Positions 10,489 to 48,410 of a DNA stretch of 64,000 nt are shown in pieces (positions within the stretch are counted from its first letter, which is position 1; each line of letters begins with the position of its first letter). A program made the translations under genes and the position numbers. The DNA is taken from contig JBBIQY010000002.1 of the NCBI GenBank assembly GCA_037442085.1, forward strand, positions 6,583 through 70,582, read 5' to 3'. This DNA comes from Anaerolineae bacterium (lineage in GTDB: Bacteria > Chloroflexota > Anaerolineae > Anaerolineales > UBA6663). Below the pieces are notes generated by a model. The model was given only the letters and a program-made list of their open reading frames with translations, searched no databases and had not been told where the DNA came from.

Positions 10489-10493
10489 ACTCA

Positions 10494-11718: not shown

Positions 11719-11728
11719 TTGCTCTGAT

Positions 11729-12622: not shown

Positions 12623-12683
12623 CGAACAGTAGAGAGCGAGTGGCGGGTAGCCGATAGCCATCCGTCATCAGCCGAAGGAGTCT

Positions 12684-13766: not shown

Positions 13767-13815
13767 TGTATTGCGAATTCCATGCGGCGAATGCCGCGCA
13801 GACGGAACACGCGCG

Positions 13816-14826
13816 ATGCCCTCCCCGATTCGTCTCCTGAGCCTCGGCGCTATCCACTGGCTCCGCACCCAGTCGGTCTATCACGCCCTGGCCGAGACGA
13901 TGACGGCGGGGTCGCCCGACACGATTGTGCTGACGCGGCCGGCGCAGCCCTATCTGTGCCTCGGCTACCATCAGGAATTGGAGGCGGTGCTCGATCGCGC
14001 GGCGTGCGCGGCGCTGGGCCTGCCCATCGTGCGGCGCAGGGTAGGCGGCGGCGCGACGTATCTTGACTCGGATCAACTTTTTTATCAGTGCCTGTTTCAT
14101 CACACGCGCGTCCCGGCGACCGTTAGCGGCGTATATGCGCAACTGCTGGCCGCGCCGGTGGCGACGCTGCGGGCGCTGGGCCTGAGCGTCGAGTTGCGGG
14201 GCGAGAACGAGATCGAGGTGGGGGGCGATCGCGATGGTCATCGCGCCGGGAAACGAATTGCCGGGATCGGCGGCGGCAGGATTGGGGAGGCAGCGGTGGT
14301 CGTCGGCAATATCCTGTTCGATTTTGACTATGAAGCGATGGCGCGCGCCTGGCGCGTCCCCTCGGAGTCGTTCCGCCGGTTGGCCGCCGAGGCCCTGCGC
14401 GAGTGCGTCACGACTCTGAGGCGCGAATTGCCGCGCCCCGTCCCGCCCGATGACGTTCAGGCCGTCCTGATTTACGAATTCGCCCGCGCCCTCGGCCGTC
14501 CGGTGAAGCCCGGCGAGCTGACGCCGCAGGAGGCGCGCAAAATTGGCGAGCTCGACCGGCGCCTCGTCTCCACAAAATGGCTGAACCTGCAGGCCAACGG
14601 CGCGAAGCCGATGACGGCGCTCAAAATCTCGCGCGGCGTCTTCATCCACGCCGCCGAAGCGAAGATCGCAAACTACAAAGTGCGCGCGGCCTTTCGCGTT
14701 CGCGACGACGTGATCGAGCGGACGATGCTGGAAAGCGAACCGGAGCGCGACTGGCGAGAGGCAGCAGAAAACTTGAGGGGGACGAAAGTGAGAGAATGGG
14801 TGCGGGGGGTGGAGGCGCAAATATGA
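13816..14826 (+). CDS. LplA/LipB-superfamily paralog 2 (two-domain, motifs intact)
   Basis: VRRRVGGGATYLDSDQLFY and GKRIAGIGGG, plus a C-terminal domain resembling the LplA C-domain. Confidence 0.7.
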   Translation: MPSPIRLLSLGAIHWLRTQSVYHALAETMTAGSPDTIVLTRPAQPYLCLGYHQELEAVLDRAACAALGLPIVRRRVGGGATYLDSDQLFYQCLFHHTRVPATVSGVYAQLLAAPVATLRALGLSVELRGENEIEVGGDRDGHRAGKRIAGIGGGRIGEAAVVVGNILFDFDYEAMARAWRVPSESFRRLAAEALRECVTTLRRELPRPVPPDDVQAVLIYEFARALGRPVKPGELTPQEARKIGELDRRLVSTKWLNLQANGAKPMTALKISRGVFIHAAEAKIANYKVRAAFRVRDDVIERTMLESEPERDWREAAENLRGTKVREWVRGVEAQI

Positions 14827-15572
14827 TCGCCCCCGGCGCCCTGCGCCTGCTCAACCTCGGCCCCACCGCGTGGGCGCGGACGCAATCCGTGTACCGCGCC
14901 ACCGCCGAATTGTTTCCAGCCGACGGCCGGGGCGCAGTAATCTTCGCTCAATCGCTGCACCCCTATCTCACGCACGGCGTCCAGCAGTCTGCCTCGGAGA
15001 CGTTCGACCTGGCGGCGTGTGAGCGCCTGGGCCTGCCGGTGGTGCGCCGACCGTTCCCCGGCAGCGCCGAATACTGTGACGTGAACCAATTGCTGTTTCA
15101 GTGGATTCTGCCGCCCCCCGTCGGGGCGAGGCACGCGACGTTCCTGCGGGTGGCCACGGCAGTGCTGGCCGCGTTGCAGGCGTTCGGCCTCGCCGCCGAT
15201 TACGACGGGGCGGGACGGTTTGCGGTGAAAGGCGCGCGTCTGGGAACGCTTGCAGGTGGGCGATATGGGGCGGCGCTGGTGTGCCTTGGGGCGGTGTATC
15301 TGGGATATGACCCGCAGCGCCTGGCCCAGCTCGAGCGCGCGCCGCGCCTCGAGAGAACCACATCGTTGTGGGCCGAGGCCCCGCGCCCGCTCTCGCCCGA
15401 GATGGTGCAGGCGGCCCTCCTCGAGCACTTCGCGCGCACGCTGGGTCGGCCCATCGTGCGCGATACGCCGCGCGTGCCGGAGACGCAGGCGGCGAAACGC
15501 CTCGAAGCCGAGCTGCTTGGCGTAGAATTGGGAGACCTGCCGCCGGCAGAGGCCGGGCTGGACGGTGATTGA
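14823..15572 (+). CDS. LplA/LipB-superfamily paralog 3, N-domain only, glycine motif degenerate
   Basis: Aligns to paralog 2 (LRLLNLGP.., LGLPVVRRP..), but GGG is replaced by PGS in VRRPFPGSAEYCDVNQL. ATGA overlap with paralog 2. Confidence 0.6.
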   Translation: MIAPGALRLLNLGPTAWARTQSVYRATAELFPADGRGAVIFAQSLHPYLTHGVQQSASETFDLAACERLGLPVVRRPFPGSAEYCDVNQLLFQWILPPPVGARHATFLRVATAVLAALQAFGLAADYDGAGRFAVKGARLGTLAGGRYGAALVCLGAVYLGYDPQRLAQLERAPRLERTTSLWAEAPRPLSPEMVQAALLEHFARTLGRPIVRDTPRVPETQAAKRLEAELLGVELGDLPPAEAGLDGD

Positions 15573-33958: not shown

Positions 33959-33984
33959 AGAGACCTCTACGCCCAATAGATTTC

Positions 33985-34013
33985 TTGACCGAGCCAAGCG
34001 TATACGCTAGAAT
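33985..34013 (+). promoter_or_regulatory. Near-consensus sigma-70 promoter for tRNA-Gly
   Basis: TTGACC (33985-33990), 17 nt spacer, TAGAAT (34008-34013). The mature tRNA 5' end is 13 nt downstream. Confidence 0.7.
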
Positions 34014-34025
34014 GCCTGCCGCACC

Positions 34026-34097
34026 GCGGGTGTAGTTCAGTGGTAGAACGCTTGCTTCCCAAGCAAGATATCGTGGGTTCGAATCCCATCACCCGCT
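34026..34097 (+). tRNA. tRNA-Gly (anticodon CCC)
   Basis: Manual cloverleaf: acceptor gcgggtg/cacccgc, D stem gttc/gaac, anticodon stem cttgc/gcaag with loop ttCCCaa, T arm gtggg-ttcgaat-cccat. 72 nt, CCA not encoded. Confidence 0.9.
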
Positions 34098-34140
34098 TAT
34101 TGTATCAGCCGGGCGGGTTCGCCAGTACCCGCTGGACGGA

Positions 34141-34174
34141 CGCCCTCGTAACCCCTCGAGGGCGATTACATTTT
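34141..34174 (+). terminator. Putative intrinsic terminator after the tRNA
   Basis: CGCCCTCG-taacccct-CGAGGGCG (8 bp GC stem) followed by attacatttt. Confidence 0.5.
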
Positions 34175-34239
34175 CGGCAAGTTCCAACCGTTTTCACACA
34201 CTGGTGCCGGCCCATAACCTGCCGCCGGACGGGGGTTCT

Positions 34240-34248
34240 TGTTAGAAT
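34240..34248 (+). promoter_or_regulatory. Possible extended -10 promoter (TGtTAGAAT) for the receiver/GAF operon
   Basis: tgttagaat lies ~85 nt upstream of ATG 34332. No good -35. Confidence 0.3.
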
Positions 34249-34331
34249 CGTCTCGCTCCCAACCAGGCGCGCAAGCTGCGCCGTTGGGCCTGACCGCCCC
34301 GCTCCATGGGCGTGCAACGGTTGATTGCAAT

Positions 34332-34718
34332 ATGCCGGAGACCCATATCTTGTACATTGAAGACAATGCCGACAACCGCACCCTGGTCAAGCGCGTGCTG
34401 GAAGCTGCCGGCTACCGGGTCAGCCTGGCTGCGGAAGCACAATCCGGGCTGGCCGAGGCGGTGCGCAGCCGGCCGCAGATCATCCTGCTGGACATCAACC
34501 TGCCGGAAGTGGATGGCTATACGTTGACCACACGCCTGCGCGCCACGGCCGGGCTGGAGAACACGTGCATTATTGCCCTGACCGCGAATGTCATGAAAGG
34601 CGACCGTGAGCGTACGCTAACCGCCGGGTGTAACGGTTACATTCAGAAGCCGATTGACGTGGATGCGCTGCCCGATCAGGTCGCGCGTTATCTGGCCCAG
34701 CACCGCAAAGCAACCTGA
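34332..34718 (+). CDS. Single-domain response regulator (CheY-like receiver)
   Basis: ILYIEDN...IILLDINLPEVDG...ALTANVMKGD...GYIQKPI. Confidence 0.85.
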   Translation: MPETHILYIEDNADNRTLVKRVLEAAGYRVSLAAEAQSGLAEAVRSRPQIILLDINLPEVDGYTLTTRLRATAGLENTCIIALTANVMKGDRERTLTAGCNGYIQKPIDVDALPDQVARYLAQHRKAT

Positions 34719-34739
34719 GGGCGCGCCAACCTCACCACA

Positions 34740-35180
34740 ATGAAACTCATGCCAACTCCGCCTCACACTCGCGAACCCGTCAACCCCAAAGACGCGACCG
34801 TGCTGATCGTCGAAGACAACGTCTCCAACTTTGTGCTGATGGCCCGCATGTTGGCGTATATGGGCGTGCCGCGCTGTGAATGGAAGACCTCGGGCTGGCA
34901 GGTGGTGGAATTCGCCGACACCCTGCCGCGCATTGACCTGATCATCATGGACATCCGGCTGCCCTACGAAGACGGCTACGCGGCACTCTCTAAAGTGCGC
35001 GCCACCCCCAAGCTCAAGGAGACGATCGTCGTGGCCGTGACCGCCGAAGCCACTCTGGAGCAGTTGAACCGGGCGCGCGCTGCCGGCTTCGACGGCTTCC
35101 TGGGCAAACCCCTTGACCCAGATCGCTTCCCCGACCAGATCCGGCGTTTGCTGCGCGGCGAGCCGGTCTGGGAACAGTGA
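34740..35180 (+). CDS. Single-domain response regulator (receiver), second copy
   Basis: VLIVEDN...LIIMDIRLPYEDG...AVTAEA...GFLGKPL. Confidence 0.8.
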   Translation: MKLMPTPPHTREPVNPKDATVLIVEDNVSNFVLMARMLAYMGVPRCEWKTSGWQVVEFADTLPRIDLIIMDIRLPYEDGYAALSKVRATPKLKETIVVAVTAEATLEQLNRARAAGFDGFLGKPLDPDRFPDQIRRLLRGEPVWEQ

Positions 35181-35198
35181 GCATGGGAGGAGGCGCGC

Positions 35199-37025
35199 AT
35201 GACCAGTCAGCCGCCCCTGTCCCCCCGGCCTACAGCCAGCGGCGGGTTGGCGCGCAGTCTGCTCTGGCTGGTGCTGCCGCTCACTCTCGCGCCGCTTCTG
35301 GTCGCAGCCTATGGCTTCTATCGTCAGGCGGAAGCCGAGCTTGACCGCCGCCTCACCACACAACTCGATACGCTGGTCAACGCCAAACTAGCGCAAATTC
35401 GACAATGGACGGACCAGCAGGTCACGGTCCTTGACGTGCTGGCGCGCGACATCGCGCGGGAGACAATCACCCCGGAAACAGCCGCCGCTCTGCGCCCGCA
35501 ACTGGCCGCGTTCCTCGATGCAAACCCGGCTTATAAGTGCCTCCTCATCGTTGGCGTCACCGATGGCGCCGTCTGGCTCAATGAGGGCGCTGCGCCAGCA
35601 GCGGCGATGTCCTTCTCCGAGAGCTTTCTCCAGCAAGTAAAGTATGAACCGCAGTTCCTGACGCCGCGCTTCTGGCCGGAGCTGGACGCGCAGGTCGTCA
35701 GCCTGGTCGCCACTACGCCCATCGCACCAGCCGAGCAGAGTGCGGTGGCGATCCTGGTCGGCGTGCTACGCCATGAGCCGCTGCTGCGAATCGTCGCGCC
35801 GGCGCCCGGCCTGGGAGCGACCGGCCAGGCCTACCTGGTCAGTGAAGACGGTTACCGCGTCGGCGTCCAGATCATGTCGCCGCGCGCCCGTCCGCGAAGC
35901 GAGACGATACGCCGCGTGCTCGATCAGGCCAGCAGCGGCGGAGGCTTCTACGCCAACCCGGAAGGGGCGACCGTCGTCGGGCGTTACGCCTGGCTGAACG
36001 AACAGCGGCTGGCGCTGTTCGTGGAGCAAGAGTGGGCCGAAGCTGCAGCGCCGCTCGAAAACACGCTGTGGATACTGGGGGCGGTGACCCTGAGCAGTAG
36101 TGTGCTGGTGGTTGTGGTGAGTACGTTCTTCACCCGGCGTCTGACCCGACCCATCCGCGCCTTGACTAACAGCGCCGCGCGCATCGCCGCCGGCGATCTG
36201 ACAGCTCAAGTGGAGATCGAACGCAGCGACGAACTGGGCCTGCTGGCGCAAGCCTTCAACCGCATGAGCGAAGACCTGCGGATTTCCTACCGGACGCTTC
36301 AAACCACCGCTGAGTGGCGCGCCCGACAATTGACGATCACAGCGGAGATGAGCCGCGTCGCCGCTGCCCATCGCAGCCTGGCCCAATTGCTGCCAGAAGT
36401 GACGGCCCTCATCCAGCATCATTTTGGTTACCATGGCGTGCTGGTTTTCCTGACCGATGAGACAGGTCAGTCGTTGCGGCTGCACACCGAACACTATGCG
36501 TCGGTGGCCAGCGGCCGTCCAGCAGGACCAAAGGCCCATCCCCTCACCATCGAGATCGAGTCTGGCTCATTGCCGGGCCACGTTGCGCGCAGCCGTTCGG
36601 CGCGCACAGCCGCTCAGGTGGAAGCCCCGCCCCTGCACCGGCTAGACCCGCGCCTGGCCGAATTCCAATCGGAGGCAGCCCTGCCCTTGACCGTCGGCGA
36701 GCGCCTCATCGGCGTCCTGGTCTGCCTCAGCCGCGAGCCCGACGCCTTCTCAGGCGCAGACTTCGACATCCTGCAAACGCTGACCGATCAGGCCGCCGTG
36801 GCGATCGAGAACTGCCAGCTCTTCGAGCGCCAGCAGAGCCTCTTACGCCTGGAGGAACTGGTACTCACGCTCTCGACGAAAGCGCACCGCTCCCTGAAAG
36901 CCGAGACCATCCTCGAAAGCACCGCTGTGGAGCTGGGCCGAGCGTTGGGCGCGCGCCGGGCCATCGTGCGCCTACAGGGCGGCAGCCCAGGTAACGGCCA
37001 GACGCTGGAGACGGACCCGAAATGA
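35199..37025 (+). CDS. Membrane sensor protein: TM - extracytoplasmic (Cache-like) domain - TM - HAMP - GAF, no output domain
   Basis: HAMP motif RPIRALTNSAARIAAGDLTAQVEIERSDELGLLAQAFNRM. GAF end FSGADFDILQTLTDQAAVAIENCQLF. GGAGGAGG SD. Confidence 0.8.
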   Translation: MTSQPPLSPRPTASGGLARSLLWLVLPLTLAPLLVAAYGFYRQAEAELDRRLTTQLDTLVNAKLAQIRQWTDQQVTVLDVLARDIARETITPETAAALRPQLAAFLDANPAYKCLLIVGVTDGAVWLNEGAAPAAAMSFSESFLQQVKYEPQFLTPRFWPELDAQVVSLVATTPIAPAEQSAVAILVGVLRHEPLLRIVAPAPGLGATGQAYLVSEDGYRVGVQIMSPRARPRSETIRRVLDQASSGGGFYANPEGATVVGRYAWLNEQRLALFVEQEWAEAAAPLENTLWILGAVTLSSSVLVVVVSTFFTRRLTRPIRALTNSAARIAAGDLTAQVEIERSDELGLLAQAFNRMSEDLRISYRTLQTTAEWRARQLTITAEMSRVAAAHRSLAQLLPEVTALIQHHFGYHGVLVFLTDETGQSLRLHTEHYASVASGRPAGPKAHPLTIEIESGSLPGHVARSRSARTAAQVEAPPLHRLDPRLAEFQSEAALPLTVGERLIGVLVCLSREPDAFSGADFDILQTLTDQAAVAIENCQLFERQQSLLRLEELVLTLSTKAHRSLKAETILESTAVELGRALGARRAIVRLQGGSPGNGQTLETDPK

Positions 37026-39901
37026 CACCGCCGTCCGAATCGCGCCCCCATGCGCAGCGCAATGTGCGCCGGATCGGGCGTCTGTTGCTGGTCATCGCCG
37101 CCCTGATTGCCGGAGTGGCCCTCGTCCTGTATCTGGGCGAGGGCGGGCCAGCCGCAGCGCTCCCCGTGCTAGCTGCAGCCGGCGTCGCGATCATGACGGC
37201 GCTGATCAGTCTGAGTCTCAACGCCGCCAGTCGAACCCGCAGCGCCGCCTGGTTGCTGGCCATCTTCGTGATGCTGGCAGCGCCGGGCGCAGTCGCTCTG
37301 TTTGCCAACATCGGCGTGCCCAGCAGCATCCTGCTCCTGATCGCCGTCGGCGCGATCGCCAGCCTGAGCCTGGCCGGGTCCGAGGCGCGCACCATGATCC
37401 TGGCCGGCGTGGCCGTCAGCGTGACGACCCTGAGCCTGGATCTGCTCCTCGAGTCGAATGCGCTCTGGCCACGCCTGACGCTGCCCGACTGGTTTCAGAA
37501 CGGCGCCCTGCCCGTCTTCACGACCGGCGTAATCGCGTTGTTTGGGGTTTTGCTCTGGCGCCAGTTTCCGCGCTACCGCCTGAGCAGCAAACTGTTGTTG
37601 GGCTTCCTCTTTGTGGCGCTGGCGCCGCTCATCCTCACGAGTTGGCGCACCGACCAGGCCCTGCGCGCCAGCCTGACCCGTACCGTCAACCAATCGCTGG
37701 TGGTCGCTGCCTCGCGCACCGCCGCCGACCTCGACAGTTTCCTCACCGCCAACCGTCTCGCCATCTCCGGGCAGGCGCGCCTGCCGCTGTTGAGCGAGTA
37801 CCTGCGCCTGCCCGCCTCCGAGCGTTCGGCCAGCCCCCTGACGCAGCAAACGCGTGACCTGCTCCTCTCCCTGCTGACCGCGCCCGGCCAAGGCGCCCTG
37901 GCCACGGGCCAGACGCGCAACACCTCAGCCTACTTCCTGTTCGATGCCAGCGGCGACCTGGTGTTGAGCACGACCTCCGGCGCGGCCCTTGAGCCGGCCC
38001 AGGCGGAGGCCATCTTCCGAACGCCGTTGGAGACCGGAGAGGCTTACCTCTCGCCCGTCTACTATCGCGGCTCGACCGGCGCTTTTTACCTGGCTGTGCC
38101 TGTTGCCGAACCGGGGGGTACGCCCCTCGGCGTGCTGGCGGCCGAGGTCAACTCGGCCTGGCTCCAGCGCCTCATCCAACTCAACCGGGAGCCGCTCGGG
38201 CCGGGCAGCGAATCGGTGGCAGCCCTGTTCAACGAGGACGGCCTGCGGCTGGCCGACAGCGCCGCCGCCGGCACCAATGCATTGCGGTTCGCCGCGCTGC
38301 CGGCAGCGCCGGACTTGAACAACTTACTGACCCTGGGACGCGCGCCGGCGCGCACGCCGGCCGAGCTGGACGCGCAATTACCGGCGCTGGCGGCGCGGCT
38401 GGCGGACGCCCGGCAGACCGACCAACCGACTTTCTTCGAAGGCCTCATCCACTATGCCGACGACCCTGCCGAGCCGGAGCCGCGCCACTTTGCCGTATTA
38501 CTACCGCTACGCAATGCGCCGTGGATCGTCCTGACATCGCAACCGGAACCGGTGGCCCTGGCTCCGGTGCGCGCTCAGACCCGTACAACGATCCTGCTGG
38601 CGCTGGTCGCCGCCCTGGCTGTGACAGGCCTGTCGGCGATCGCTTCGCGCAACCTGACCCAGCCCATCGTCAGCCTGACCCGGGCGGCAGAGCAGGTGCG
38701 CAGCGGCGACCTTTCCGCGCGCGCGACGCCCGCCGGCGACGATGAGATCACCCAACTCATCAAGACGTTCAACGCCATGACGAGCCAACTGCAAGACACC
38801 CTGAACCGGTCGGAGCAGTTGGTGGCGGAACGCACGGCGCAGCTCCAGGCCACCGCCGACATCAGCCGCGCCACCGCCGGCATCCGCAACCTGAACGACC
38901 TGCTTGAGCTGGCGCTGGAGATGATCCGGGGCCGGTTCGGGTTTTATCACGCTTCGGTCTTTTTACTGGACGACGCCGGCGAATATGCCGTGCTGCGCGA
39001 ATCCACCGGCGAAGTGGGCGCACAGCTAAAAGCGCAAGGGCACCGGCTGGCGATCGGCTCGCGCTCGCTGGTAGGCTGGGTGACGCAGAACCGGCGGCCG
39101 CGCATCGCCCGCGACGTGGCCGACGACCCGTTCCACTTCAAGAACCCGCTGCTGCCCGAGACACGCTCCGAATGCTGCCTGCCGTTGCTGGTCGGCGACC
39201 GCCTGCTGGGGGCGCTCGACGTGCAGAGCCGCGAGCGCGACGACTTCAACGAGAACGACCTGCAGGCGCTGCAGGTGCTGGCCGACCAGTTGAGCATCGC
39301 CATCGAAAACGCCTCCCTCTTCCAGCGCACGCAGGCCGCGCTCGCGGAAGCCCAATCGCTCTACCAGCAGACCCTCAACACCAGTTGGCGCAACACGGCC
39401 ATCGAGCAGAACCTGCTCCCGCGCACCCTGGTCTACGATCTGGAGCCGGGCGGCGCCGAGAGCGACAACCCGATTCAGGTGCCGCTACGCCTGCGCGGCC
39501 AGCTCATCGGCGTGATCGAACTGCATGGGCGGCCCGAGGAGCGGCCGCTCAATGCGCAGGAGCAGGCCGTGCTCGAAACCATCGCCGCGCAAATCGCCTC
39601 GGCGCTGGAGAGCGCGGCGCTCTTGCAGGAAAGCCAGGCCCGCAGCCGGCGCGACCAGCTCATCACCGCCATCACCGACGAGATGCGCTCGTCCCTGAAC
39701 CCGGCCTTCATCGTGCAAAGCGGCATCCGCCAGCTGGGCCGTGCGCTCGGCGCAACCGAGGTCACCCTGCGGCTGCAACCCAAGCCCATCGCCAAAGACT
39801 CGCCCGACATCACACTGCCCAGCGGCGATGGAGAAGCGGGTAGCGCTCCTTCGCAGCCAGCTCCGCTGGCGCCGCCAGCTTCGCTTGCGCATGGGTCATG
39901 A
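37022..39901 (+). CDS. Polytopic membrane sensor: multi-TM - extracytoplasmic domain - HAMP - 2 GAF, no output domain
   Basis: ATGA overlap with the upstream gene. HAMP motif QPIVSLTRAAEQVRSGDLSARA..DEITQLIKTFNAM. GAF ends FNENDLQALQVLADQLSIAIENASLF and LNAQEQAVLETIAAQIASALESAALL. Confidence 0.8.
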   Translation: MTPPSESRPHAQRNVRRIGRLLLVIAALIAGVALVLYLGEGGPAAALPVLAAAGVAIMTALISLSLNAASRTRSAAWLLAIFVMLAAPGAVALFANIGVPSSILLLIAVGAIASLSLAGSEARTMILAGVAVSVTTLSLDLLLESNALWPRLTLPDWFQNGALPVFTTGVIALFGVLLWRQFPRYRLSSKLLLGFLFVALAPLILTSWRTDQALRASLTRTVNQSLVVAASRTAADLDSFLTANRLAISGQARLPLLSEYLRLPASERSASPLTQQTRDLLLSLLTAPGQGALATGQTRNTSAYFLFDASGDLVLSTTSGAALEPAQAEAIFRTPLETGEAYLSPVYYRGSTGAFYLAVPVAEPGGTPLGVLAAEVNSAWLQRLIQLNREPLGPGSESVAALFNEDGLRLADSAAAGTNALRFAALPAAPDLNNLLTLGRAPARTPAELDAQLPALAARLADARQTDQPTFFEGLIHYADDPAEPEPRHFAVLLPLRNAPWIVLTSQPEPVALAPVRAQTRTTILLALVAALAVTGLSAIASRNLTQPIVSLTRAAEQVRSGDLSARATPAGDDEITQLIKTFNAMTSQLQDTLNRSEQLVAERTAQLQATADISRATAGIRNLNDLLELALEMIRGRFGFYHASVFLLDDAGEYAVLRESTGEVGAQLKAQGHRLAIGSRSLVGWVTQNRRPRIARDVADDPFHFKNPLLPETRSECCLPLLVGDRLLGALDVQSRERDDFNENDLQALQVLADQLSIAIENASLFQRTQAALAEAQSLYQQTLNTSWRNTAIEQNLLPRTLVYDLEPGGAESDNPIQVPLRLRGQLIGVIELHGRPEERPLNAQEQAVLETIAAQIASALESAALLQESQARSRRDQLITAITDEMRSSLNPAFIVQSGIRQLGRALGATEVTLRLQPKPIAKDSPDITLPSGDGEAGSAPSQPAPLAPPASLAHGS

Positions 39902-42900
39902 ACTTGAAGGAACGCGACAGCGGCATCTTCCCGCGTGAGCATTTGACGCCCGAGCTGCGCCTCGCCCTGCGCAACGCCCGCGCCGAGGTGCTCGATCAAT
40001 TGCTGCGCGGCGTGCGCTGGGTAGCGCTGCTGGCGCTGGCCACCTCGGCGCTGAGTGCGGCCTTCACCGGCATGTGGGCGCCGACCCTCATCTATGCCGT
40101 CATCTTCCTGGCCGTTCTAGCGTTATCACTGGCGCGCACCTGGCCGCTGACCAGGCGCGGCGGCCTCTTCCTCGGATTGGTGTACGTGCTGGGGGTGGTC
40201 AGCCTATTCAGCTCCGGCCTGGAAGGCTCCGGCCGGGTGATCCTGCTGGGCTTCGCCGTGTTAACCACAGTCCTGTTCGGCGCGCGGGCCGGGCTGAGCG
40301 CCTTGCTGGCTGTCCTGCTGACGTGGGCGCTCCTGGGCTTCGTGGTCACGACGGGCCTGTGGCAACCCCTGGACCCGGCCAGTTCTCTGGTCTGGCAGGA
40401 TTGGCTGGTTGCCGGGGCGACCCTGGCGCTGTTTATCGTGGCGCTCATCATCCCGCAACGCCAGTTCCTGGAGACACAGGCCTTTGCGCTGGCGACTTCC
40501 GAACAAAAACGCGAGCTGGAAAAAACGCGCGAGGCTCTGCTGCAGCGGACAGCCGAGCTCGAGGCGGCTACACAGGCGCTCAGCCTGACCAATGAGGAAT
40601 TGCTGGCGCAGTCGCGGGTGCTGGAGCGTCGCGCCTCACAGTTGGCCGTCAGCGCCGAGGTGGCGCGCGCCGCCGCCACCCTGCATGATTTACCCACGCT
40701 GCTCGATGGCGCTGTCCGCCTCATCAGCGAGAAGTTCGGGTTTTATCACGCTGGGATTTTCCTGCTGGACGAAGACGGGGAGTGGGCGGTGCTGCGAGCG
40801 GCCAGCAGCGCCGGCGGGCAGCGGATGCTCGCTCGCCGCCACCGCTTGCGCGCAGCGAAGGTCGCCGGTGGGCAGCAGGGCATCGTCGGTTTCGTCGCCG
40901 CCTCCGGTCAGCCGCGCATCGCCCTCAATGTCGGCGAGGACGCCGTGCACTTCCGCAACCCCGATCTGCCGGACACACAGTCCGAGATGGCGCTGCCGCT
41001 GCGCGGCAGCGCCGGTGTGATCGGCGCGCTCGACGTGCAATCCACGCAGCTCAACGCCTTCAGCGACGACGACATCGTCGCCCTGCAATCGCTGGCCGAC
41101 CAATTGGCGGTCGCCATCGAAAACGCGCGGCTGCTGGCCGAACAGGAACGCAACCTGGAGGCGCTGCGGCAGTTGCAAAGACAGGCGCGCGAACAGGGCG
41201 GCGGCATGCCGGTCTCGGCGCTGCCACAAGCGTATCGCTATGACGGCGTGGACACGGCGCCGCTGCCCATCGAGGACGCCGCCACCGAGCCGGGCGCGCT
41301 GGAGATCCCCATTCGCGCCGGCGACCTGACGCTGGGCACCATTGCCATCAAGCGGGAGCAGCAGGTCTGGTCCGACAACGAGCTCCAACTGATCGAAGCC
41401 ATCGCCGAGCGCATGGGGCTGGCGCTGGAAAACGCCCACCTGTACTTCGATGCCCGCACCAATGCCCAGCGCATGGCGGCACTGTCGGAAGCGGCGCTGG
41501 AGCTGACCGGCCCGCAATTCAGCCGCGCCGAGCTGCTGCAGCTCATTGCGCGCCGCGCCCGCGCCCTGCTGCGCGCCGATAGCGCCGACCTGTGGCTGCC
41601 CGTGCCGGATTCCGACGAAATCGAACTGGCCGTGACCCATCCCACCGTCTCCTATTCGCTACTGGGCCGCCGCCTGAAAATCGGCGAAGGGTTGGCAGGC
41701 AGGGCGCTGGCCACCGGCGGGCCGGTGACGTTGGACGATTACCAGACTCAGCCCGGCCAGATGAGCGCCCTGGCCGTGCCCATGATCTGGCAGACGGAGA
41801 CGCTGGGCGTGCTGGCCGTCAACCGGCTGCAGCCGGACTGGCGCTACTCCGCCGAGGATGAGACCGTAGCCCGGCTGTTCGCTGCCGCCGCCGCCTCGGC
41901 CCTCTCCAATGCCCGCCTGCTGGAGGAGACGCGTCGCCGCCTGGTCGAACTGCAAACCATCAACAGTATCAGCGCCATCCTCAGCTCGCAGGCTAACCTG
42001 GAGGTGATGCTGCGCCAGGTGGGCGACAAGATCATGGAGATCTTCGGCGTCCAGACCGGCTACATCGCCCTGTTCGACCCGGCCCGCCGGCAACTGGGGT
42101 TTCCATACAGCCTGGAAAAGGGCCAGCCGGTATCCACGCCGCCCATCCCGCTTGGGCACGGCCCAACGTCGCTCGTCTTTCAGACGCGCCAGCCGTTGCT
42201 GATCAACCAGGATGCCCCGCTCCGCCTGCAGGAATTGGGCGCCTACCTCGGGAGCGAGCCGGCGCTCTCGTACCTGAGCGTGCCCATCATCGTCGGCGAC
42301 GAAGTCACCGGCATCCTCAACGTGCAGAGCACGACTCAGGCCGGGTTGTTCTCCGAGAACGACATCCAGCTGCTGAGCACTATTGCCGCCAATATCGGCG
42401 TCGCCATCGAAAACGTGCGCTTGTTCAAACAAACGCAGAGCGCACTGGCCGAGACGGAGGCCCTCTACCGTGCCAGCGCCGAGCTGAACACGGCCCAGGG
42501 CTTCAATGAGGTGCTCGCCGTGCTACGCCGCCAGACGGTGCTGCGGCGTGCCCATACGCTGCAACTGCACTACTTCGAGCGCCCCTGGACGGCGCGCGAG
42601 GTGCCGGGCCGCAGCGAAATCATCGCGCACTGGAGCATCGTCCAGCCCGAGGCCCTCGACCAACTCTTCCCTGTCGCGGCCTGGATGGCGCGCAATCTGC
42701 GGCCGGATGAGGCGCTGCTCATCGAGAATCTGCAGCACGATCCGCGTCTGGATGAGATCAGCCGCAACACGTACCGGCTACGCTACAGCGCGCAGGCTGC
42801 GCTGTTCACGCCGTTGGTGGTCGGCGGCGAGTGGGTGGGCTACCTGGCCGGCTTCATCGGGGAGGCCACGACGTTCAGCGAGGCGGAACGGCTGCGGCTG

Positions 42901-45687
42901 GTGAACCTGGGCCAGCAGGCAGCGGCGTTGATCGAGAACCTGCGCAGCATCGCCGTCATCGAGCGCCGCGCCGAGCAGTTGGGCGCGCTCAACCGCCTGG
43001 CCGAGGCCGCCGTCTCCAATCTCGACCTGGACGTCATGCTGACCTCCGTCTGCCGCGAAATCGCTCAGGCATTCCAGGCGCACAGCGTCAACATCGCGCT
43101 GCTCAACGCCGAGCGCGATGCGCTGGTTGTGGCCGCGGATTACAGCGTGGCTGCTGATCACAGCATGGCCGCCGAGCAGGCGCAAGAGAACAGCACGGCC
43201 GGGGTCGTCATCCCAATCGCCAGTAATCCTTCCCTCCGGCGCGTGGTCGAAACCCATCGTTCGCTGGTCCTCACCGATGTGCAGACCCGTTCGTTGGGCG
43301 CGTTCAGCGCGCCGAGCGAGACGCGGCACGATCGGATGCACGAGCGCCAAGCCGAAAGCCTGCTGCTCACGCCGCTGGTTGCGCGCGGCGAGGTCATCGG
43401 CGTCATCGGCATTGATAGCGACCAGCCGCGGCGCACCTTCACCGACGCCGAAGTCTCGCTGGCCGAGACCATGGCGGGCCAGATTTCCAACGCGATCGAG
43501 AACAGCCGCCTGTACCAGCAGGCGCAGCGGCGAGCGCAGCAACTCATCACCGCCGCCGAGGTCAGCCGCGCCGCCACCACGCTGCTCGACGAGCGCGAAC
43601 TATTACAGCGCGCGGTCGAGCTGATCCATGAGCGCTTCAATCTGTACTACGTCGGCTTGTTCCTGCTGGACGAACACGGTCACTGGGCCGTGTTGCGCCA
43701 CGCCGTCGGCGGCGCTCCGGAAGGCGCGGCGTTGCTGCTGCGCCAGGGCCACCAACTGGAGGTCGGCGGACAATCCATGGTGGGCTGGGCCATCGCCCAC
43801 CGCGCTGCGCGAATCTCGTCGGACGTGGCCGAAGAGACGGTGCGCTACCCCAACCCGCTGACGCCGGACACGCGCTCGGAGATGGCGCTGCCGCTGATCG
43901 TTGGGCCAAGCGTGCTCGGCGCCATCAGCGTGCAATCCACCCAGCGTAACGCCTTCACCGAGGCCGACGTCGCCGTGCTACAAACGATGGCCGATCAGAT
44001 CGCGGCTTCCCTGCAAAATGCCCGCCTCTTCCGCCGCGTCAAGGCGCAAGAGCGTTCGGCCAGCGCCCTGGCCCGCATCGCACAATCCGTCTCCGGCAAA
44101 CTGGAAGAGCAGGAGGTGTGGGCCACCCTCGCCGCCGAGCTGTTGGACACCTTCCAGGCCGACGGCGTCGTCATCTATGGTTGGAACGCGGCGGACGAGA
44201 CGGTGCTGCCGCGGGTGGTGCTGTGCGAGCCGGAGGCCGCCGACGCGCTGCGCTGGCCGACGCCCGGCCAGCCCACGCCGGTGAGCGCGCATCCGGAACT
44301 GGCGCAGGCCATCACGGCGGAGACACGCCAGGTGCAGCGACTTGCCTCGAGCATGTTCGGCGAGCCGCGTGAGAGCGTCATCGTCCCGCTACACATCATG
44401 GGCCAGCTCGACAGCCTGGTGGCGCTGGTGCATTCCACCGGCTCTGCCGGCGCCGATCACCTGACGACGGACGACTTCAACCTGCTGGAGGCTGCCGTCC
44501 GCAGCGCCGAGGCCGCGGTGCAGATTGCGCGCCTGTACGCCCTGCAACGCGAGACCGCCGAGCGTCTGCAGGAAGTTGACCGGCTCAAGACCCAGTTCCT
44601 GGCCAACATGAGCCACGAGCTGCGCACACCGCTCAACTCCATCATCGGCTTCTCACGCGTCATCCTCAAGGGCATTGACGGCCCGCTCACCGAAATGCAG
44701 CAGCAGGACCTGACCTCGATCTACAACTCCGGCCAGCATCTGCTCGGCCTGATCAACGATATCCTCGACCTGTCGCGCATTGAGGCCGGCAAGATCGAGC
44801 TATCTTTCGACCGGGTATACCTGGGCGACATCTTCGAAGGCGTGCTGGCCACCACGCGCGGCCTGGTGCGCGACAAATCCATCGAACTGCACAAGAACGT
44901 GCCGGCAGATCTGCCGCCGGTGCGGGCCGACGCCACGCGCGTGCGGCAGGTGCTGCTCAACCTGTGCTCCAACGCTGCCAAGTTCACCGAACGTGGCGCG
45001 ATCACCCTCAGCGCCAGTGTCCTCCCCACCGAGTCGGTCGTGCAGATTAGCGTCACGGACACCGGGCAGGGCATCCCGGCCCATGAAATGGACAAGCTGT
45101 TCGAGCGCTTCTCGCAGTTGGATGGATCGCCAACGCGGCGCGCGGGCGGCACCGGCCTGGGCTTGAACATCAGCCGCCATCTGGTCGAACTGCACGGCGG
45201 GCGCATCTGGGCCGAGAGCGCCGGCGTGCCGGGCCGAGGCTCCACCTTCAGCTTCACGCTGCCGATCTGGGTTCCCGAGCCGGAACCTGAGCCGGGCGGC
45301 CCGCCGCTCATCCTCGTCATCGAGGATGACCGCGGCGTCTCCATGCTTTATCGCCGCTACCTGGAGCCGAACGGCTACCAGTTGCTGACCGTCTCGCGAA
45401 GCGAGGAAGCGGTGACGCGCGCCATAGCGGCGCGGCCGGCGGCCATCCTGCTCGATGTGCTTATGCCCAACAAGGACGGCTGGCAGGTGCTGACCGAGTT
45501 GAAGCGCAATCCGGCCACGAGCGCCATCCCTGTCATCGTCTGCACCGTCACCGACGAGCGGGAGCGCGCGCTGCAACTGGGGGCCGATGAACACCTGCTC
45601 AAGCCGATTCTCGAAAGCGACCTGACGCGCGCGCTCAATCGGCTGCCCGGCCTGAGCCGTAACAACGGCGCGACGCAGCACCGCTGA
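39898..45687 (+). CDS. Hybrid sensor histidine kinase: N-terminal TM block, ~8 GAF modules, HisKA, HATPase_c, C-terminal receiver
   Basis: ATGA overlap with the upstream gene. 8 GAF-terminal helices. FLANMSHELRTPL, GTGLGLNISR, and receiver ILVIEDD...ILLDVLMPNKDG. Confidence 0.85.
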   Translation: MNLKERDSGIFPREHLTPELRLALRNARAEVLDQLLRGVRWVALLALATSALSAAFTGMWAPTLIYAVIFLAVLALSLARTWPLTRRGGLFLGLVYVLGVVSLFSSGLEGSGRVILLGFAVLTTVLFGARAGLSALLAVLLTWALLGFVVTTGLWQPLDPASSLVWQDWLVAGATLALFIVALIIPQRQFLETQAFALATSEQKRELEKTREALLQRTAELEAATQALSLTNEELLAQSRVLERRASQLAVSAEVARAAATLHDLPTLLDGAVRLISEKFGFYHAGIFLLDEDGEWAVLRAASSAGGQRMLARRHRLRAAKVAGGQQGIVGFVAASGQPRIALNVGEDAVHFRNPDLPDTQSEMALPLRGSAGVIGALDVQSTQLNAFSDDDIVALQSLADQLAVAIENARLLAEQERNLEALRQLQRQAREQGGGMPVSALPQAYRYDGVDTAPLPIEDAATEPGALEIPIRAGDLTLGTIAIKREQQVWSDNELQLIEAIAERMGLALENAHLYFDARTNAQRMAALSEAALELTGPQFSRAELLQLIARRARALLRADSADLWLPVPDSDEIELAVTHPTVSYSLLGRRLKIGEGLAGRALATGGPVTLDDYQTQPGQMSALAVPMIWQTETLGVLAVNRLQPDWRYSAEDETVARLFAAAAASALSNARLLEETRRRLVELQTINSISAILSSQANLEVMLRQVGDKIMEIFGVQTGYIALFDPARRQLGFPYSLEKGQPVSTPPIPLGHGPTSLVFQTRQPLLINQDAPLRLQELGAYLGSEPALSYLSVPIIVGDEVTGILNVQSTTQAGLFSENDIQLLSTIAANIGVAIENVRLFKQTQSALAETEALYRASAELNTAQGFNEVLAVLRRQTVLRRAHTLQLHYFERPWTAREVPGRSEIIAHWSIVQPEALDQLFPVAAWMARNLRPDEALLIENLQHDPRLDEISRNTYRLRYSAQAALFTPLVVGGEWVGYLAGFIGEATTFSEAERLRLVNLGQQAAALIENLRSIAVIERRAEQLGALNRLAEAAVSNLDLDVMLTSVCREIAQAFQAHSVNIALLNAERDALVVAADYSVAADHSMAAEQAQENSTAGVVIPIASNPSLRRVVETHRSLVLTDVQTRSLGAFSAPSETRHDRMHERQAESLLLTPLVARGEVIGVIGIDSDQPRRTFTDAEVSLAETMAGQISNAIENSRLYQQAQRRAQQLITAAEVSRAATTLLDERELLQRAVELIHERFNLYYVGLFLLDEHGHWAVLRHAVGGAPEGAALLLRQGHQLEVGGQSMVGWAIAHRAARISSDVAEETVRYPNPLTPDTRSEMALPLIVGPSVLGAISVQSTQRNAFTEADVAVLQTMADQIAASLQNARLFRRVKAQERSASALARIAQSVSGKLEEQEVWATLAAELLDTFQADGVVIYGWNAADETVLPRVVLCEPEAADALRWPTPGQPTPVSAHPELAQAITAETRQVQRLASSMFGEPRESVIVPLHIMGQLDSLVALVHSTGSAGADHLTTDDFNLLEAAVRSAEAAVQIARLYALQRETAERLQEVDRLKTQFLANMSHELRTPLNSIIGFSRVILKGIDGPLTEMQQQDLTSIYNSGQHLLGLINDILDLSRIEAGKIELSFDRVYLGDIFEGVLATTRGLVRDKSIELHKNVPADLPPVRADATRVRQVLLNLCSNAAKFTERGAITLSASVLPTESVVQISVTDTGQGIPAHEMDKLFERFSQLDGSPTRRAGGTGLGLNISRHLVELHGGRIWAESAGVPGRGSTFSFTLPIWVPEPEPEPGGPPLILVIEDDRGVSMLYRRYLEPNGYQLLTVSRSEEAVTRAIAARPAAILLDVLMPNKDGWQVLTELKRNPATSAIPVIVCTVTDERERALQLGADEHLLKPILESDLTRALNRLPGLSRNNGATQHR

Positions 45688-45717
45688 GCGCTGCTGTCAT
45701 CAGCGGCCTCCGCCAGC

Positions 45718-47385
45718 ATGCCCACTACGGTCGAGATGGTTTGCATGGATTGTGGCGCACGTGCGCCGTTTGCGCCGATGCCGATGGCATGCGTGCGCTG
45801 CGGCAGCGACTGGTTCGAAGCCCGCTACGACTACGCCGCCGTCGCGGCCAGCTTTGCCGCGCCCACCTCCGGCGCCCACATGCGCCGTAACCCCGGCTTA
45901 TGGCGCTATCACGAGCTGCTGCCGCTGCGTGACCCGGCGCACGCCATCACGCTGGGCGAGGGCAACACGCCCCTCGTGCCGGCCACCAACCTGGGGCTGA
46001 TGCTCGGCTGCTCCAACCTCTTCATCAAGGATGAGCGGCAGAACCCGAGCGGCTCGTTCAAGGATCGGCAGGCCGCGCTGGCCGTCTCGGTGATGAAGGA
46101 AGCCGGCATCCGCGACGCGGTGGTGGCCTCCACCGGCAATGTTGCCATCTCCTACGCCGCCTACGGCGCGCGCGCCGGCATCAAAGTCTATGCCTTCCTC
46201 ACCTCGCTCGTGCCTCCCGAGAAGATGCGCGAGTGTGCGCTCTATGGCGCCCAGGTCATCAAAGTCACCGCCACCTATGATCAGTCGAAGGAGCTGGCGC
46301 AGGCCTTCGCCCGCCAGCGCGGCATGTATTACGACCGGGGCCTGCGCAGCATCGCCTCCGTCGAGAGCATGAAGACGCTGGCGTATGAGGTCGCCGAGCA
46401 GCTTGCATGGCAGGGGCCGGAGCCGGCCACGCCCTGGCGTGCCCCCGACTGGTATCTCCAATCCATCAGCGGCGGGCTGGGGCCGGTCGGCGCGATGAAG
46501 GGCTTCCGCGAATTGCAGGCCATGGGCCTGATTGACCGGATGCCGCGCCTGGCCTGCTTCCAGGTGGAGGGCTGCGCGCCGATGGTGACCGCCTACAAAC
46601 GCGGCAGCGCAACGCCGGATGTGGTCGCCTCGCCGCGCACCCGCATCGGCACGCTGGCGACGGGCAACCCGGGCCGCGCCTACAATTTTCTGCGTGACTA
46701 CCTGCTCCAGCACGGCGGCGTTCTGGAGTCCGTCAGCGACGACGAGACCTTCCGCGCCATGCACGTGATGGCAAAGATCGAGGGCTTCAGCATGGAGCCG
46801 GGCGCAGCGGCGGCCTTTGCCGGTCTGTTCAAGCTGGTGCAGCGCGGCCTCATCCAGCCGGACGAAACGGTGGTGGTGAACTGCACCGGCCACACCTTCC
46901 CGGTGGAGAGCGAAGTGTTGGGCGACGGCTGGGCGCAGGAGTTAGGCGAAGCACCGGCGACCACACCGGAGCCGGAGGGCGTGCTGGCCGCTTTGCAACG
47001 GTTGGACGCGCGCGTACGCTCGATTGCCATCATTGATGATACGCCGGACGCGGTGCGGCTGCTGCGCCGCATCCTACAGGCCCACGGCGATTACGCTATC
47101 CACGAGGCCGATAACGGGCGCGCCGGCCTGGCCCTGATCCGCGAGCGCCGGCCCGACCTCGTCATCCTGGACTTGATGATGCCCGAGGTGGACGGCTTCG
47201 CCGTGTTGGACGCCCTGCGAGCCGACGAGGCCACGCGCGATATCCCCGTCATCGTCGTCACCGCCAAAACCCTGACCCCGGAGGAGCGTGAGCGACTAGA
47301 CGGCCAGGCCAGCTCACTGTTTCAGAAAGGCGAGTTCATGGACGACGCGCTATTCGATGATGTGCGCAAGGCATTGCCGGAGTGA
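45718..47385 (+). CDS. Threonine-synthase-like fold-type II PLP enzyme fused to a C-terminal receiver domain
   Basis: N-terminal Zn ribbon CMDCG...CVRCG, GEGNTPLV, PLP-lysine motif NPSGSFKDRQA. C-terminal IAIIDDT...VILDLMMPEVDG...VVTAKT. Confidence 0.8.
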   Translation: MPTTVEMVCMDCGARAPFAPMPMACVRCGSDWFEARYDYAAVAASFAAPTSGAHMRRNPGLWRYHELLPLRDPAHAITLGEGNTPLVPATNLGLMLGCSNLFIKDERQNPSGSFKDRQAALAVSVMKEAGIRDAVVASTGNVAISYAAYGARAGIKVYAFLTSLVPPEKMRECALYGAQVIKVTATYDQSKELAQAFARQRGMYYDRGLRSIASVESMKTLAYEVAEQLAWQGPEPATPWRAPDWYLQSISGGLGPVGAMKGFRELQAMGLIDRMPRLACFQVEGCAPMVTAYKRGSATPDVVASPRTRIGTLATGNPGRAYNFLRDYLLQHGGVLESVSDDETFRAMHVMAKIEGFSMEPGAAAAFAGLFKLVQRGLIQPDETVVVNCTGHTFPVESEVLGDGWAQELGEAPATTPEPEGVLAALQRLDARVRSIAIIDDTPDAVRLLRRILQAHGDYAIHEADNGRAGLALIRERRPDLVILDLMMPEVDGFAVLDALRADEATRDIPVIVVTAKTLTPEERERLDGQASSLFQKGEFMDDALFDDVRKALPE

Positions 47386-47393
47386 AGTGATCG

Positions 47394-48410
47394 GTGGCAG
47401 CGCGCTGGAACTCAACCCAGGTCACCGGCGTGGCGGCGGCGTTGCTCTCGGCGCTGGCCTCGGGCTTCGTGCCCATCTTCGGCAAACAGGCCTATGAGGC
47501 GGGGCTGGAGCCGTTTACGGTGGTGATGCTGCGGACGGTGGGCGCGGCCGGCCTGCTCTGGTTCTTCTACCTGGTCTTCGCACGCAAGAGCATCTTCATC
47601 TACCCCTTCGCCTTCTGGGCCTGCGTAATCGCAGGCGCGGTCAACGGCCTGGGGTCGCTGCTGTTCTATACCAGCCTGAAGGATTTGAATGCCTCCCTCA
47701 GCCAGCTGCTCTTCACCCTCTACCCGCTCTTCCTCACGTTATTCTCGTGGCTCGACGGCTATCGCCTGTCGCGGCTGACGCTGGTGCGGCTCGGGCTGGC
47801 GCTGCTGGCCGTCTTTCTGCTCAAGTGGTCGGACCCTGCCGGCGCGAACTGGAGCGCAGCGCTGTTGATGATCGCCTCAGGCGCGCTGTATGCGTTGCAC
47901 ATCGCCCTCAACCAGCACACACTTTACGACGTCCCCTCGCCAACGGTGACGCTGTACACACTGAGCGGCATGGCCGGCACGGTCTTCATCGCCTACCTCA
48001 TCGGCGGGAGGCCGGCCCTGCCGGCCAGCGCAACGGCCTGGCAGCCGGTGCTGTTGCTCACGCTCGTCACGGTCACTGCGCGGTTGACGCTGTTTGTCGG
48101 CGTCAAGCACCTGGGCGGGATGCAGACGATCCTGCTCAACCTGAGCGAAGCTCTCGTCACCATCGTGGCGGCCAGCCTGCTGTTGAACGAGATGCTTACG
48201 CCGTTGCAGTGGTTGGGCGCGGGCCTGTTGGCCGTCTCGCTGCTGCTGGTGACGCGTGAGCAAGCGCTGGGCGCGATCCCGCAACCCAAGCCCTGGTTGC
48301 TGATCTTCACCGCATGGTTTGAAGCGGTGCGGCCTCAGTTGCCGCATCCGCGCCGCTCTCCTGCCCTCCGGAAACCCATTGCCCCGCCGCCAGCCGCCGA
48401 TGACGAGTAA
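47394..48410 (+). CDS. EamA/DMT-family transporter
   Basis: ~10 hydrophobic helices in two repeated halves, typical of EamA. GTG start 8 nt after the upstream stop. Confidence 0.7.
   Translation: MAARWNSTQVTGVAAALLSALASGFVPIFGKQAYEAGLEPFTVVMLRTVGAAGLLWFFYLVFARKSIFIYPFAFWACVIAGAVNGLGSLLFYTSLKDLNASLSQLLFTLYPLFLTLFSWLDGYRLSRLTLVRLGLALLAVFLLKWSDPAGANWSAALLMIASGALYALHIALNQHTLYDVPSPTVTLYTLSGMAGTVFIAYLIGGRPALPASATAWQPVLLLTLVTVTARLTLFVGVKHLGGMQTILLNLSEALVTIVAASLLLNEMLTPLQWLGAGLLAVSLLLVTREQALGAIPQPKPWLLIFTAWFEAVRPQLPHPRRSPALRKPIAPPPAADDE

Follow-up and report, generated by a model that had tools for sequence, protein, structure and literature searches.

With few exceptions, two-component systems exert their effects via transcription, chemotaxis proteins, or enzymes of second-messenger metabolism. 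CheB (a methylesterase), PleD and WspR (diguanylate cyclases), and RpfG (an HD-GYP protein) exemplify direct posttranslational control of catalysis; in each of these cases, a receiver domain with a full acceptor site is covalently attached to the enzyme, beside a kinase. Here, we present an analysis of a 64,000-nucleotide (nt) stretch of DNA from an Anaerolineae bacterium (assembly GCA_037442085.1, contig JBBIQY010000002.1, positions 6,583 to 70,582; referred to here as the window), in which a single gene encodes a pyridoxal phosphate (PLP)-dependent, threonine synthase (ThrC)-like enzyme core joined to a CheY-like receiver. The fusion protein resembles CheB, PleD, WspR, and RpfG in its covalent arrangement and its neighboring kinase; however, its output is a PLP amino-acid enzyme, its receiver is C-terminal, and the affected process would be metabolism rather than chemotaxis or second messengers. 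In the literature searched, we found no description of a fusion between a receiver and ThrC or another PLP enzyme, and nothing specific on PLP output domains or on threonine synthesis in Anaerolineae. We suggest, with moderate confidence, that the protein is a response regulator with a diverged ThrC-fold output that is controlled by the adjacent kinase and functionally linked to a transporter encoded immediately downstream.

The enzyme core has the same fold as the short-type (class II) ThrCs of Thermus thermophilus (1UIM/1V7C), Aquifex aeolicus (2ZSJ), Mycobacterium tuberculosis (2D1F), and Bacillus subtilis (6CGQ/6NMX), and it shares with them the SFKDR motif of the PLP-binding lysine, the ASTGN loop, and a C-terminal TGH(G/T) motif. 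In contrast to these enzymes, the fusion protein has an additional N-terminal zinc ribbon as well as the C-terminal receiver, three of its motifs are changed, and its gene does not lie in a thr operon. Regulatory modules on a ThrC-fold core are also present in plant threonine synthase (1E5X/2C2B) and in fusions of ThrC to LeuA_dimer or PadR domains; whereas control in those proteins is by ligand binding, the receiver fusion would be controlled by phosphorylation.

Architecture and distribution of the fusion

The initial annotation of this DNA, made without database searches, described a ThrC-like core with a zinc ribbon, GNTPL and SFKDR motifs, and a receiver with the sequence VILDLMMP. This description holds in every part: the motifs are found in the open reading frame (ORF) as G82-N-T-P-L86, S113-F-K115-D-R117, and V482-I-L-D485-L-M-M-P489, and Pfam identifies both PALP (E 1.9e-65) and Response_reg (E 7.8e-21) far above their gathering scores. 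Reading the DNA directly, we find that the upstream kinase gene ends with a TGA at 45685-87, that the fusion gene starts with the ATG at 45718 and ends with a TGA at 47383-85, and that 8 nt (agtgatcg) separate this stop codon from the GTG start codon of the EamA transporter gene at 47394, as annotated initially. In the N-terminal zinc ribbon, C12, C25, and C28 are conserved in 113/113 family members, while C9 is present in 111 and falls in a gap in 2; the AlphaFold2 (AF2) model places short beta-strands here at residues 6-9, 15-17, and 31-36. The mean predicted local distance difference test score (pLDDT) of this model is 82, with ~90 in the core and <50 in the linker, and the receiver is folded. 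The linker of ~30 residues nevertheless has invariant L401, G402, P417, E420, and G421 in the family alignment.

The receiver scores 74.8 bits against Response_reg (gathering score 30.2), and receivers in the PDB match it at E 1e-15. In an alignment to CheY, D440, D441, D485, T515, and K537 match CheY D12, D13, D57, T87, and K109, respectively; K537 was placed by its invariance in the family and the end of the Pfam match, the last segment of the MAFFT alignment to CheY being shifted by a four-residue insertion. Among 113 members of the subfamily to which the protein belongs (subfamily A, see below), D441, D485, and K537 are invariant, D440 is D or E, and T515 is T or S, and the same phospho-acceptor quintet is kept in the second subfamily. 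Thus, the phospho-acceptor Asp, whose absence upon proper alignment had been named as a reason to abandon the initial proposal, is present as D485 together with the full conserved quintet, and the receiver looks fully competent.

The architecture is widespread. Both PF00291 and PF00072 are detected in all of the 120 best homologues (60-98% identity), which are 546-591 amino acids (aa) long except for a few partial sequences of 436-535 aa and one 844-aa form, and the named sequences among them are from Anaerolineales. Altogether, >320 protein clusters have the receiver-fused architecture, so the search for further ThrC-receiver fusions proposed in the initial annotation was successful. When a single genome of each GTDB species was scanned, 191 stretches matched the fusion; among the 80 listed with their taxonomy, the carriers are Anaerolineales, Thermoflexales, Ardenticatenaceae, or unclassified Chloroflexota, with one labelled "Chloroflexia". 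The window is most closely related (87-88%) to the Anaerolineales metagenome-assembled genomes SKYG50 and SKYGB_hs_bin36, which places it among them. The cultured Anaerolinea thermolimosa IMO-1 also carries the fusion, in an operon with the same layout as in the window. Starting a search from the closest unfused relative, we recovered a second set of proteins (~548 aa), which occur in Aggregatilineales and other Anaerolineae. When pairwise identities were clustered by average linkage, subfamily A, with 202 sequences, separated from this subfamily B, with 122 sequences of which 11 lack a receiver, and from a small third clade with two or three receivers; these three groups resemble one another far more than they do any canonical ThrC.

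We also considered that a ThrC-like gene and the gene of a single-domain regulator might have been joined artificially during sequencing, assembly, or gene calling. One chimeric-looking call (HATPase_c joined to PALP) does exist nearby among the homologues; however, the reading frame is continuous, the linker has invariant residues, and the fusion recurs in >320 clusters from independent projects. Because independent assemblies and an isolate genome reproduce the fusion, a frameshift or assembly artefact is excluded, and we assign a negligible probability to this explanation in its general form. We conclude that the fusion family is real, class-wide, and uncharacterized. In the databases, it is carried only under generic or threshold-driven names: the A. 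thermolimosa protein (WP_084001200.1) is a "pyridoxal-phosphate dependent enzyme" in RefSeq, while subfamily B is named "threonine synthase" at NCBI.

The substrate pocket of the enzyme core

The nearest solved structures by sequence are the threonine synthases 2ZSJ, 1UIM, 2D1F, and 6CGQ (E 1e-46 to 1e-39), and the AF2 model is also nearest to threonine synthases by fold (TM-score ~0.84, 29-33% identity). By sequence, hidden Markov model (HMM), and structure, the protein is much farther from cysteate synthase, CysK/CysM, and dehydratases. Specifically, the cysteate synthase model TIGR03844 gives 105.8 bits (cutoff 324.9), cysteine synthase A gives 43.8 bits over aa 82-193 only, and the CysK/CysM structures in the PDB match at E ~1e-8 compared with 1e-46 for ThrC. 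However, the protein also scores below the cutoff of every curated ThrC model, with 146.7 bits for TIGR00260 (cutoff 167.1) and 263.4 for PRK08197 (cutoff 303). With TIGR00260, canonical zinc-ribbon controls score 285-337, and the other subfamily A and multi-receiver forms score 142-161, while subfamily B scores 170-181. Because these scores straddle the cutoff, the difference in the names of subfamilies A and B at NCBI is a threshold effect.

The PLP ligands K115, S138, T139, N141, and S/T390 do not vary. In contrast, three motifs of canonical ThrCs are changed in the fusion family: ASTGNT is ASTGNV, N-S-V-N-P-x-R-[IL]-E-G-Q-K-T is (D)-R-G-L-R-S-I-A-[AS]-V-E-S-M-K-T, and P-V-G-N-[AG]-G-N is S-G-G-[LM]-G-P. 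In the numbering of the Thermus enzyme (counted along the HMMER alignment; we verified the numbers and found these residues conserved in solved as well as canonical ThrCs), T88 is replaced by V, N154 by G, and Q164 by M in 324/324 fused proteins (V142, G208, and M218 in the window), while, in the fused clade, S155 is replaced by L/I/A/V, R160 by A/S/T/C/G, and N188 by L/M (L209, S214, and L254 in the window). We take T88, N154, S155, R160, and N188 to be the ligands of the O-phosphohomoserine phosphate in the Thermus enzyme; all five aligned positions are changed in 324/324 fused proteins, four of them to non-polar residues. Structures of Thermus ThrC with the substrate-phosphate ligands are reportedly those of Omi et al. 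from 2003 and Murakawa et al. from 2011. An unfused sister clade shares the SGGxGP signature, and because an Arg is retained at the R160 position in eight of its 11 representatives, the loss of this Arg tracks with the receiver-fused clade.

Judged by the model cutoffs and the phosphate-ligand positions, the core does not qualify as a canonical threonine synthase, and the lack of thr-pathway neighbors in the loci examined points the same way. The initial proposal of a complete ThrC-like core is, therefore, borne out for the fold and the PLP motifs but not for the match to curated ThrC models or for the phosphate-ligand-aligned positions. Because these positions are all replaced, neither threonine nor homoserine suggests itself as the product, and the predicted hydrophobic distal pocket argues for a compound other than O-phosphohomoserine or threonine. 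More generally, the remodelled pocket suggests new chemistry in the well-studied ThrC fold. In practical terms, half of the fusion family is called "threonine synthase" by only a few bits over the TIGR00260 cutoff even though the phosphate-ligand-aligned positions are replaced, and the naming of subfamily B is a likely source of false calls of a "complete threonine pathway" in reconstructions of Anaerolineae.

An alternative is that the fusion is the housekeeping threonine synthase of Anaerolineae with an allosteric receiver, and that EamA is a threonine/homoserine exporter. In this case, the nearest structures and the best HMMs would be threonine synthases, as they all are, and the marginal passing of TIGR00260 by subfamily B, together with its NCBI name, and the very wide occurrence of the gene in the class would be readily accounted for. 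The receiver would then be analogous to the S-adenosylmethionine (SAM)-activated N-terminal domain of plant threonine synthase, and regulatory LeuA_dimer C-termini do occur on relatives that retain the Arg and the EGQK motif. However, five phosphate-ligand-aligned positions are replaced in every fused protein, TIGR00260 scores are about half of those of canonical controls, and the fusion gene is never found beside hom, thrB, or asd: no such thr-pathway gene was found near the fusion among the scanned ORFs of the window or in 85 loci, unlike in an archaeal control with canonical motifs (P0267), which lies in an operon of thrC, aspartate kinase, ASD, and homoserine kinase (thrB). A separate canonical thrC, the absence of which the initial annotation had linked to a housekeeping role, was sought by tblastn with five canonical-motif ThrCs, which recovered only the fusion genes in the window and the 85 loci. 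The closest canonical-motif ThrC representatives are from Parcubacteria, Acidobacteriota, or archaea, and they are therefore uninformative on Anaerolineae.

Thermoflexus hugenholtzii (Thermoflexales) bears on this alternative from two sides. The organism excretes homoserine and threonine, its KEGG threonine module is complete, and its genome contains three genes of the RhtA type (PMC8129789), in line with a housekeeping synthase and a dedicated exporter. However, the supplement of the same study lists two K01733 genes (scores 190 and 73) as well as thrB, and neither K01733 gene lies beside RhtA (PMC8129789). The two K01733 genes, neither of which could be equated with the fusion or told apart from it, are no more than suggestive: a conventional thrC is probably present in at least one related lineage and may, in Thermoflexus, occur alongside a ThrC-like paralogue. 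Altogether, we regard a housekeeping threonine synthase as unlikely.

ThrC homologues with other functions suggest a different alternative. MetM is reported to be the homocysteine synthase of Streptomyces albulus (Hasebe et al. 2024). It is homologous to ThrC and, according to the GapMind 2026 preprint, "often misannotated" as a threonine synthase, and a non-canonical cyanobacterial lineage, the "unique ThrC", is 51.6% identical to it (PMC12172450); as appears to be the case for our fusion, these ThrC homologues do not act as plain threonine synthases and are routinely misannotated as such. By analogy, the core could convert O-phosphohomoserine to homocysteine via a protein thiocarboxylate, or perform another gamma/beta-replacement in sulfur-amino-acid synthesis, under kinase control. 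P0303, an unfused protein found on a cyanobacterial-looking contig, would fit such a relationship; it clusters at 90% identity with P0124, and P0124 is 49% identical to the core of the window protein. However, MetM and the cyanobacterial ThrC are not receiver-fused, probes for CysO, ThiS, and MoaD found no gene for a MetO/CysO/ThiS-like Gly-Gly carrier in the window or the 85 loci, although a carrier could be encoded elsewhere in the genome, and Rfam found no SAM riboswitch at the locus. Moreover, the nearest relatives of P0124 are the Anaerolineae fusions and not the named cyanobacterial or Streptomyces proteins, and a MetM-type reaction would still require the phosphate site. We consider it improbable that the core is a MetM-type enzyme.

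Kinase, transporter, and proposed mechanism

The fusion gene is the fourth of five tightly packed genes on the forward strand (35199-48410; Table 1). The two sensor genes that open the operon overlap each other by 4 nt, and the second overlaps the hybrid kinase gene by 4 nt; both sensors lack a kinase, cyclase, or other output domain, the order of this pair is kept in close relatives (L001, L002, and L006), and the two proteins may be accessory sensors acting through the kinase. The hybrid kinase has the H-box SHELRTPL (H1573), its own receiver has the residues E/D/D/T/K, and its gene ends 31 nt upstream of the fusion. An orthologous kinase catalytic region (50-87% identity) is encoded at most 900 nt upstream of the fusion in most loci, and in one (L003) the kinase stop codon overlaps the fusion start codon. 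In a second group of loci, the fusion instead lies between the gene of a CHASE4-PAS-GAFx8 kinase on its upstream side and that of a REC-HisKA-HATPase protein on its downstream side. When weaker or downstream kinase matches are included, a kinase adjoins the fusion in 52/52 loci with both flanks. Unbiased clustering of ORFs within 5 kb singled out two neighbor families as conserved, namely sensor kinases and GAF proteins, at 75 loci, and EamA, at 46; the remaining clusters are antisense shadow ORFs. These data confirm the initial placement of the fusion in a sensory array.

Table 1. Features of the fusion gene and its operon in the window
Feature	Coordinates	Strand	Length or extent	Evidence and details
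dCache-HAMP-GAF sensor without transmitter	35199..37025	+	608 aa	Pfam HAMP, GAF, weak dCache_1
dCache-HAMP-GAFx2 sensor without transmitter	37022..39901	+	959 aa	Pfam
Hybrid histidine kinase	39898..45687	+	1929 aa	Pfam; MASE11, 5-6 GAF, HisKA, HATPase_c, C-terminal receiver
Receiver-fused ThrC-like PLP enzyme	45718..47385	+	555 aa	Unbroken ORF
N-terminal zinc ribbon	45742..45801	+		Cys C9/C12/C25/C28; Cys conservation in family
Fold-type II PLP domain	45946..46890	+	aa 77-391	Pfam PALP; PLP Lys115 codon 46060-46062
Inter-domain linker	46894..46980	+	aa 393-421	AF2 pLDDT <50; predicted flexible
CheY-like receiver	47023..47331	+	aa 436-538	Pfam Response_reg; D485 codon 47170-47172
EamA/DMT-superfamily transporter	47394..48410	+	338 aa	Pfam PF00892 E 3.4e-25, two EamA stretches

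The EamA gene, which is probably translationally coupled to the fusion via the 8-nt spacer, is the sole conserved non-signalling neighbor in the unbiased clustering. In 34 of 46 loci, an EamA orthologue (37-86% identity) is encoded within 3 kb of the fusion, on either strand; 29 of 75 loci have it immediately downstream in the same orientation. The link between transporter and fusion made in the initial annotation is accordingly seen in most relatives but not in all. The further suggestion that the transporter belongs to a family of threonine/homoserine exporters stands only for membership in the DMT superfamily. The protein shares the two EamA repeats, the DMT topology, and a gene position beside an amino-acid enzyme with the Escherichia coli proteins RhtA (threonine/homoserine) and EamA/YdeD (O-acetylserine/cysteine); however, the similarity is at the level of the superfamily only, and the score of 48.8 bits for TIGR00950 (cutoff 230) leaves a placement with RhtA unsupported. 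Consistently, NCBI names the A. thermolimosa orthologue "DMT family transporter".

Based on the observed architecture and its conservation, the intact phospho-acceptor site, the linkage to kinase and transporter, and the pocket changes, we infer phosphotransfer from this kinase, regulation of the enzyme in one direction or the other, a modified chemistry, and export or import of a compound. In the working model, the two dCache-HAMP-GAF sensors would feed the multi-GAF hybrid kinase directly upstream of the fusion, which would phosphorylate D485. The phosphorylated receiver, carried on its 30-residue linker, could then make the PLP enzyme, which is probably a dimer, more or less active by freeing or imposing an inhibitory contact or by driving the protomers to re-pair. 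The enzyme has kept all that binding of PLP and of the alpha-amino acid moiety requires and, because the phosphate pocket of true ThrCs is rebuilt with hydrophobic residues, would most likely use or make a different amino-acid-type compound, by beta/gamma-replacement or elimination. The co-conserved EamA/DMT transporter would move this compound across the membrane. The regulated synthesis and export of an amino-acid-like product, put forward as the output of the sensory array in the initial annotation, is compatible with this model, in which the transporter may export or import. If true, the model would add direct phospho-control of amino-acid-type metabolism to the two-component repertoire, and it would open a way into the little-explored signalling biology of Anaerolineae, abundant inhabitants of digesters, sediments, and hot springs.

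Several observations weigh against this interpretation. As to the enzyme, R207 and R210, two conserved basic residues in the same loop as the changed pocket, could rebuild an anion site for a phosphorylated substrate such as O-phosphohomoserine; subfamily B lies just over the TIGR00260 cutoff and is a "threonine synthase" at NCBI, and the wide, apparently single-copy distribution in the class also fits a core metabolic gene. As to the transporter, no EamA gene is found within 3 kb in 12 of 46 loci, and in the EamA family from the unbiased clustering the gene lies on the opposite strand in ~40% (26 same, 20 opposite). As to the control of activity, the receiver is not docked on the core in the single-chain AF2 model. 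Finally, the route of phosphotransfer is uncertain, as the hybrid kinase carries a receiver of its own and a search of the scanned ORFs of the window gave no Hpt protein.

The latter observation would also fit an alternative in which the PLP domain is an amino-acid sensor, similar to MocR/GabR, and the protein a metabolite-gated phosphate sink or relay for the hybrid kinase. The receiver is usually N-terminal in response regulators, whereas it follows the enzyme here, variants with two or three receivers exist, and the operon lacks a DNA-binding regulator, none having been found among the scanned ORFs of the window; all three points are compatible with a sink or relay. However, the whole PLP apparatus and the remodelled pocket are strictly conserved, which fits catalysis, and the conserved transporter partner suggests flux of a small molecule. 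Moreover, we know of no sensor-only members of the ThrC/PLP fold. A role as a sensor therefore appears quite doubtful to us, and we retain the response regulator with an enzymatic output.

A more specific version of this preferred reading is that the operon is a self-contained signal module, in which periplasmic dCache sensors and the multi-GAF kinase directly phospho-activate a remodelled ThrC-fold synthase, and the product is a non-proteinogenic, probably hydrophobic-substituted amino acid that is secreted by EamA and serves cell-cell or community signalling in filamentous Anaerolineae. The Lqs/Cqs quorum-sensing systems resemble the fusion locus in that LqsA and CqsA are PLP-dependent autoinducer synthases encoded in a cluster with a sensor kinase and a response regulator; however, these synthases are fold-type I enzymes that are separate proteins without a receiver, and the analogy is conceptual only. 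While we regard this version as a rather unlikely one, it would, if true, introduce a new "synthase response regulator" type as well as a new reaction of the ThrC fold.

Upstream of the operon, a tRNA and a terminator-like hairpin are located at 34026-34164, and the following ~1 kb (34164-35199) has no ORF longer than 248 aa, the short ones present there overlapping on both strands; neither an Rfam family nor a promoter-like site was found in this interval. No riboswitch was found in the window, in which Rfam identifies tRNA only. Downstream of the operon, a pyruvate kinase gene and an MFS gene are syntenic in close relatives only.

Variant architectures and other genes of the window

C-terminal regulatory additions recur in the zinc-ribbon ThrC-like superfamily in the form of the LeuA domain, PadR, and two or three receivers. 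Three tandem receivers are present in the 844-aa protein P0106 (L004, 6255-8789) and two in P0122 and P0125 (708-715 aa). In the locus of P0106, a kinase was not seen upstream, and the contig ends shortly past the gene. A LeuA allosteric (dimerization) domain or a PadR DNA-binding domain is C-terminal in P0167, P0222, P0244, and P0258 (~611-620 aa) and in P0202, P0227, and P0263 (~490 aa), and the LeuA_dimer fusions retain the Arg and the EGQK motif where the receiver fusions differ. The call P0138 (492 aa), in which HATPase_c is joined to a partial PALP, is probably a gene-calling run-through over an overlapping kinase/fusion junction and not a real architecture.

P0303 (L086, 5239-6507, 422 aa) is a receiver-less member of subfamily B. 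Its contig, which carries a phycobilisome linker gene and is probably cyanobacterial, also encodes an adjoining GAF-PAS sensor; this suggests horizontal transfer and loss of the receiver. The unfused clade members P0149 and P0134 (L088 and L089) are adjoined by genes for radical-SAM/SPASM proteins, NeuB, glycosyltransferases, a TauE sulfite-exporter-type protein, and an Fe-alcohol dehydrogenase, which suggests roles of these distant unfused SGGxGP clade members in the biosynthesis of specialized metabolites or glycans. We also attempted to derive the function of the fusion from the contexts of its unfused relatives, but rejected this approach, as the neighbors are heterogeneous and nothing is transferable.

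Two further regions of the window were noted. Divergently from the fusion operon, the reverse strand encodes a giant kinase of 2635 aa (26090-33997) with ~14 GAF domains followed by HisKA and HATPase_c. At 10407-15572 (+), three genes with lipoate-protein-ligase-type domains (10407-11702, 13771-14826, and 14577-15572) lie together with a radical-SAM gene (12684-13766) among them, and such a concentration of LplA/B paralogues is unusual.

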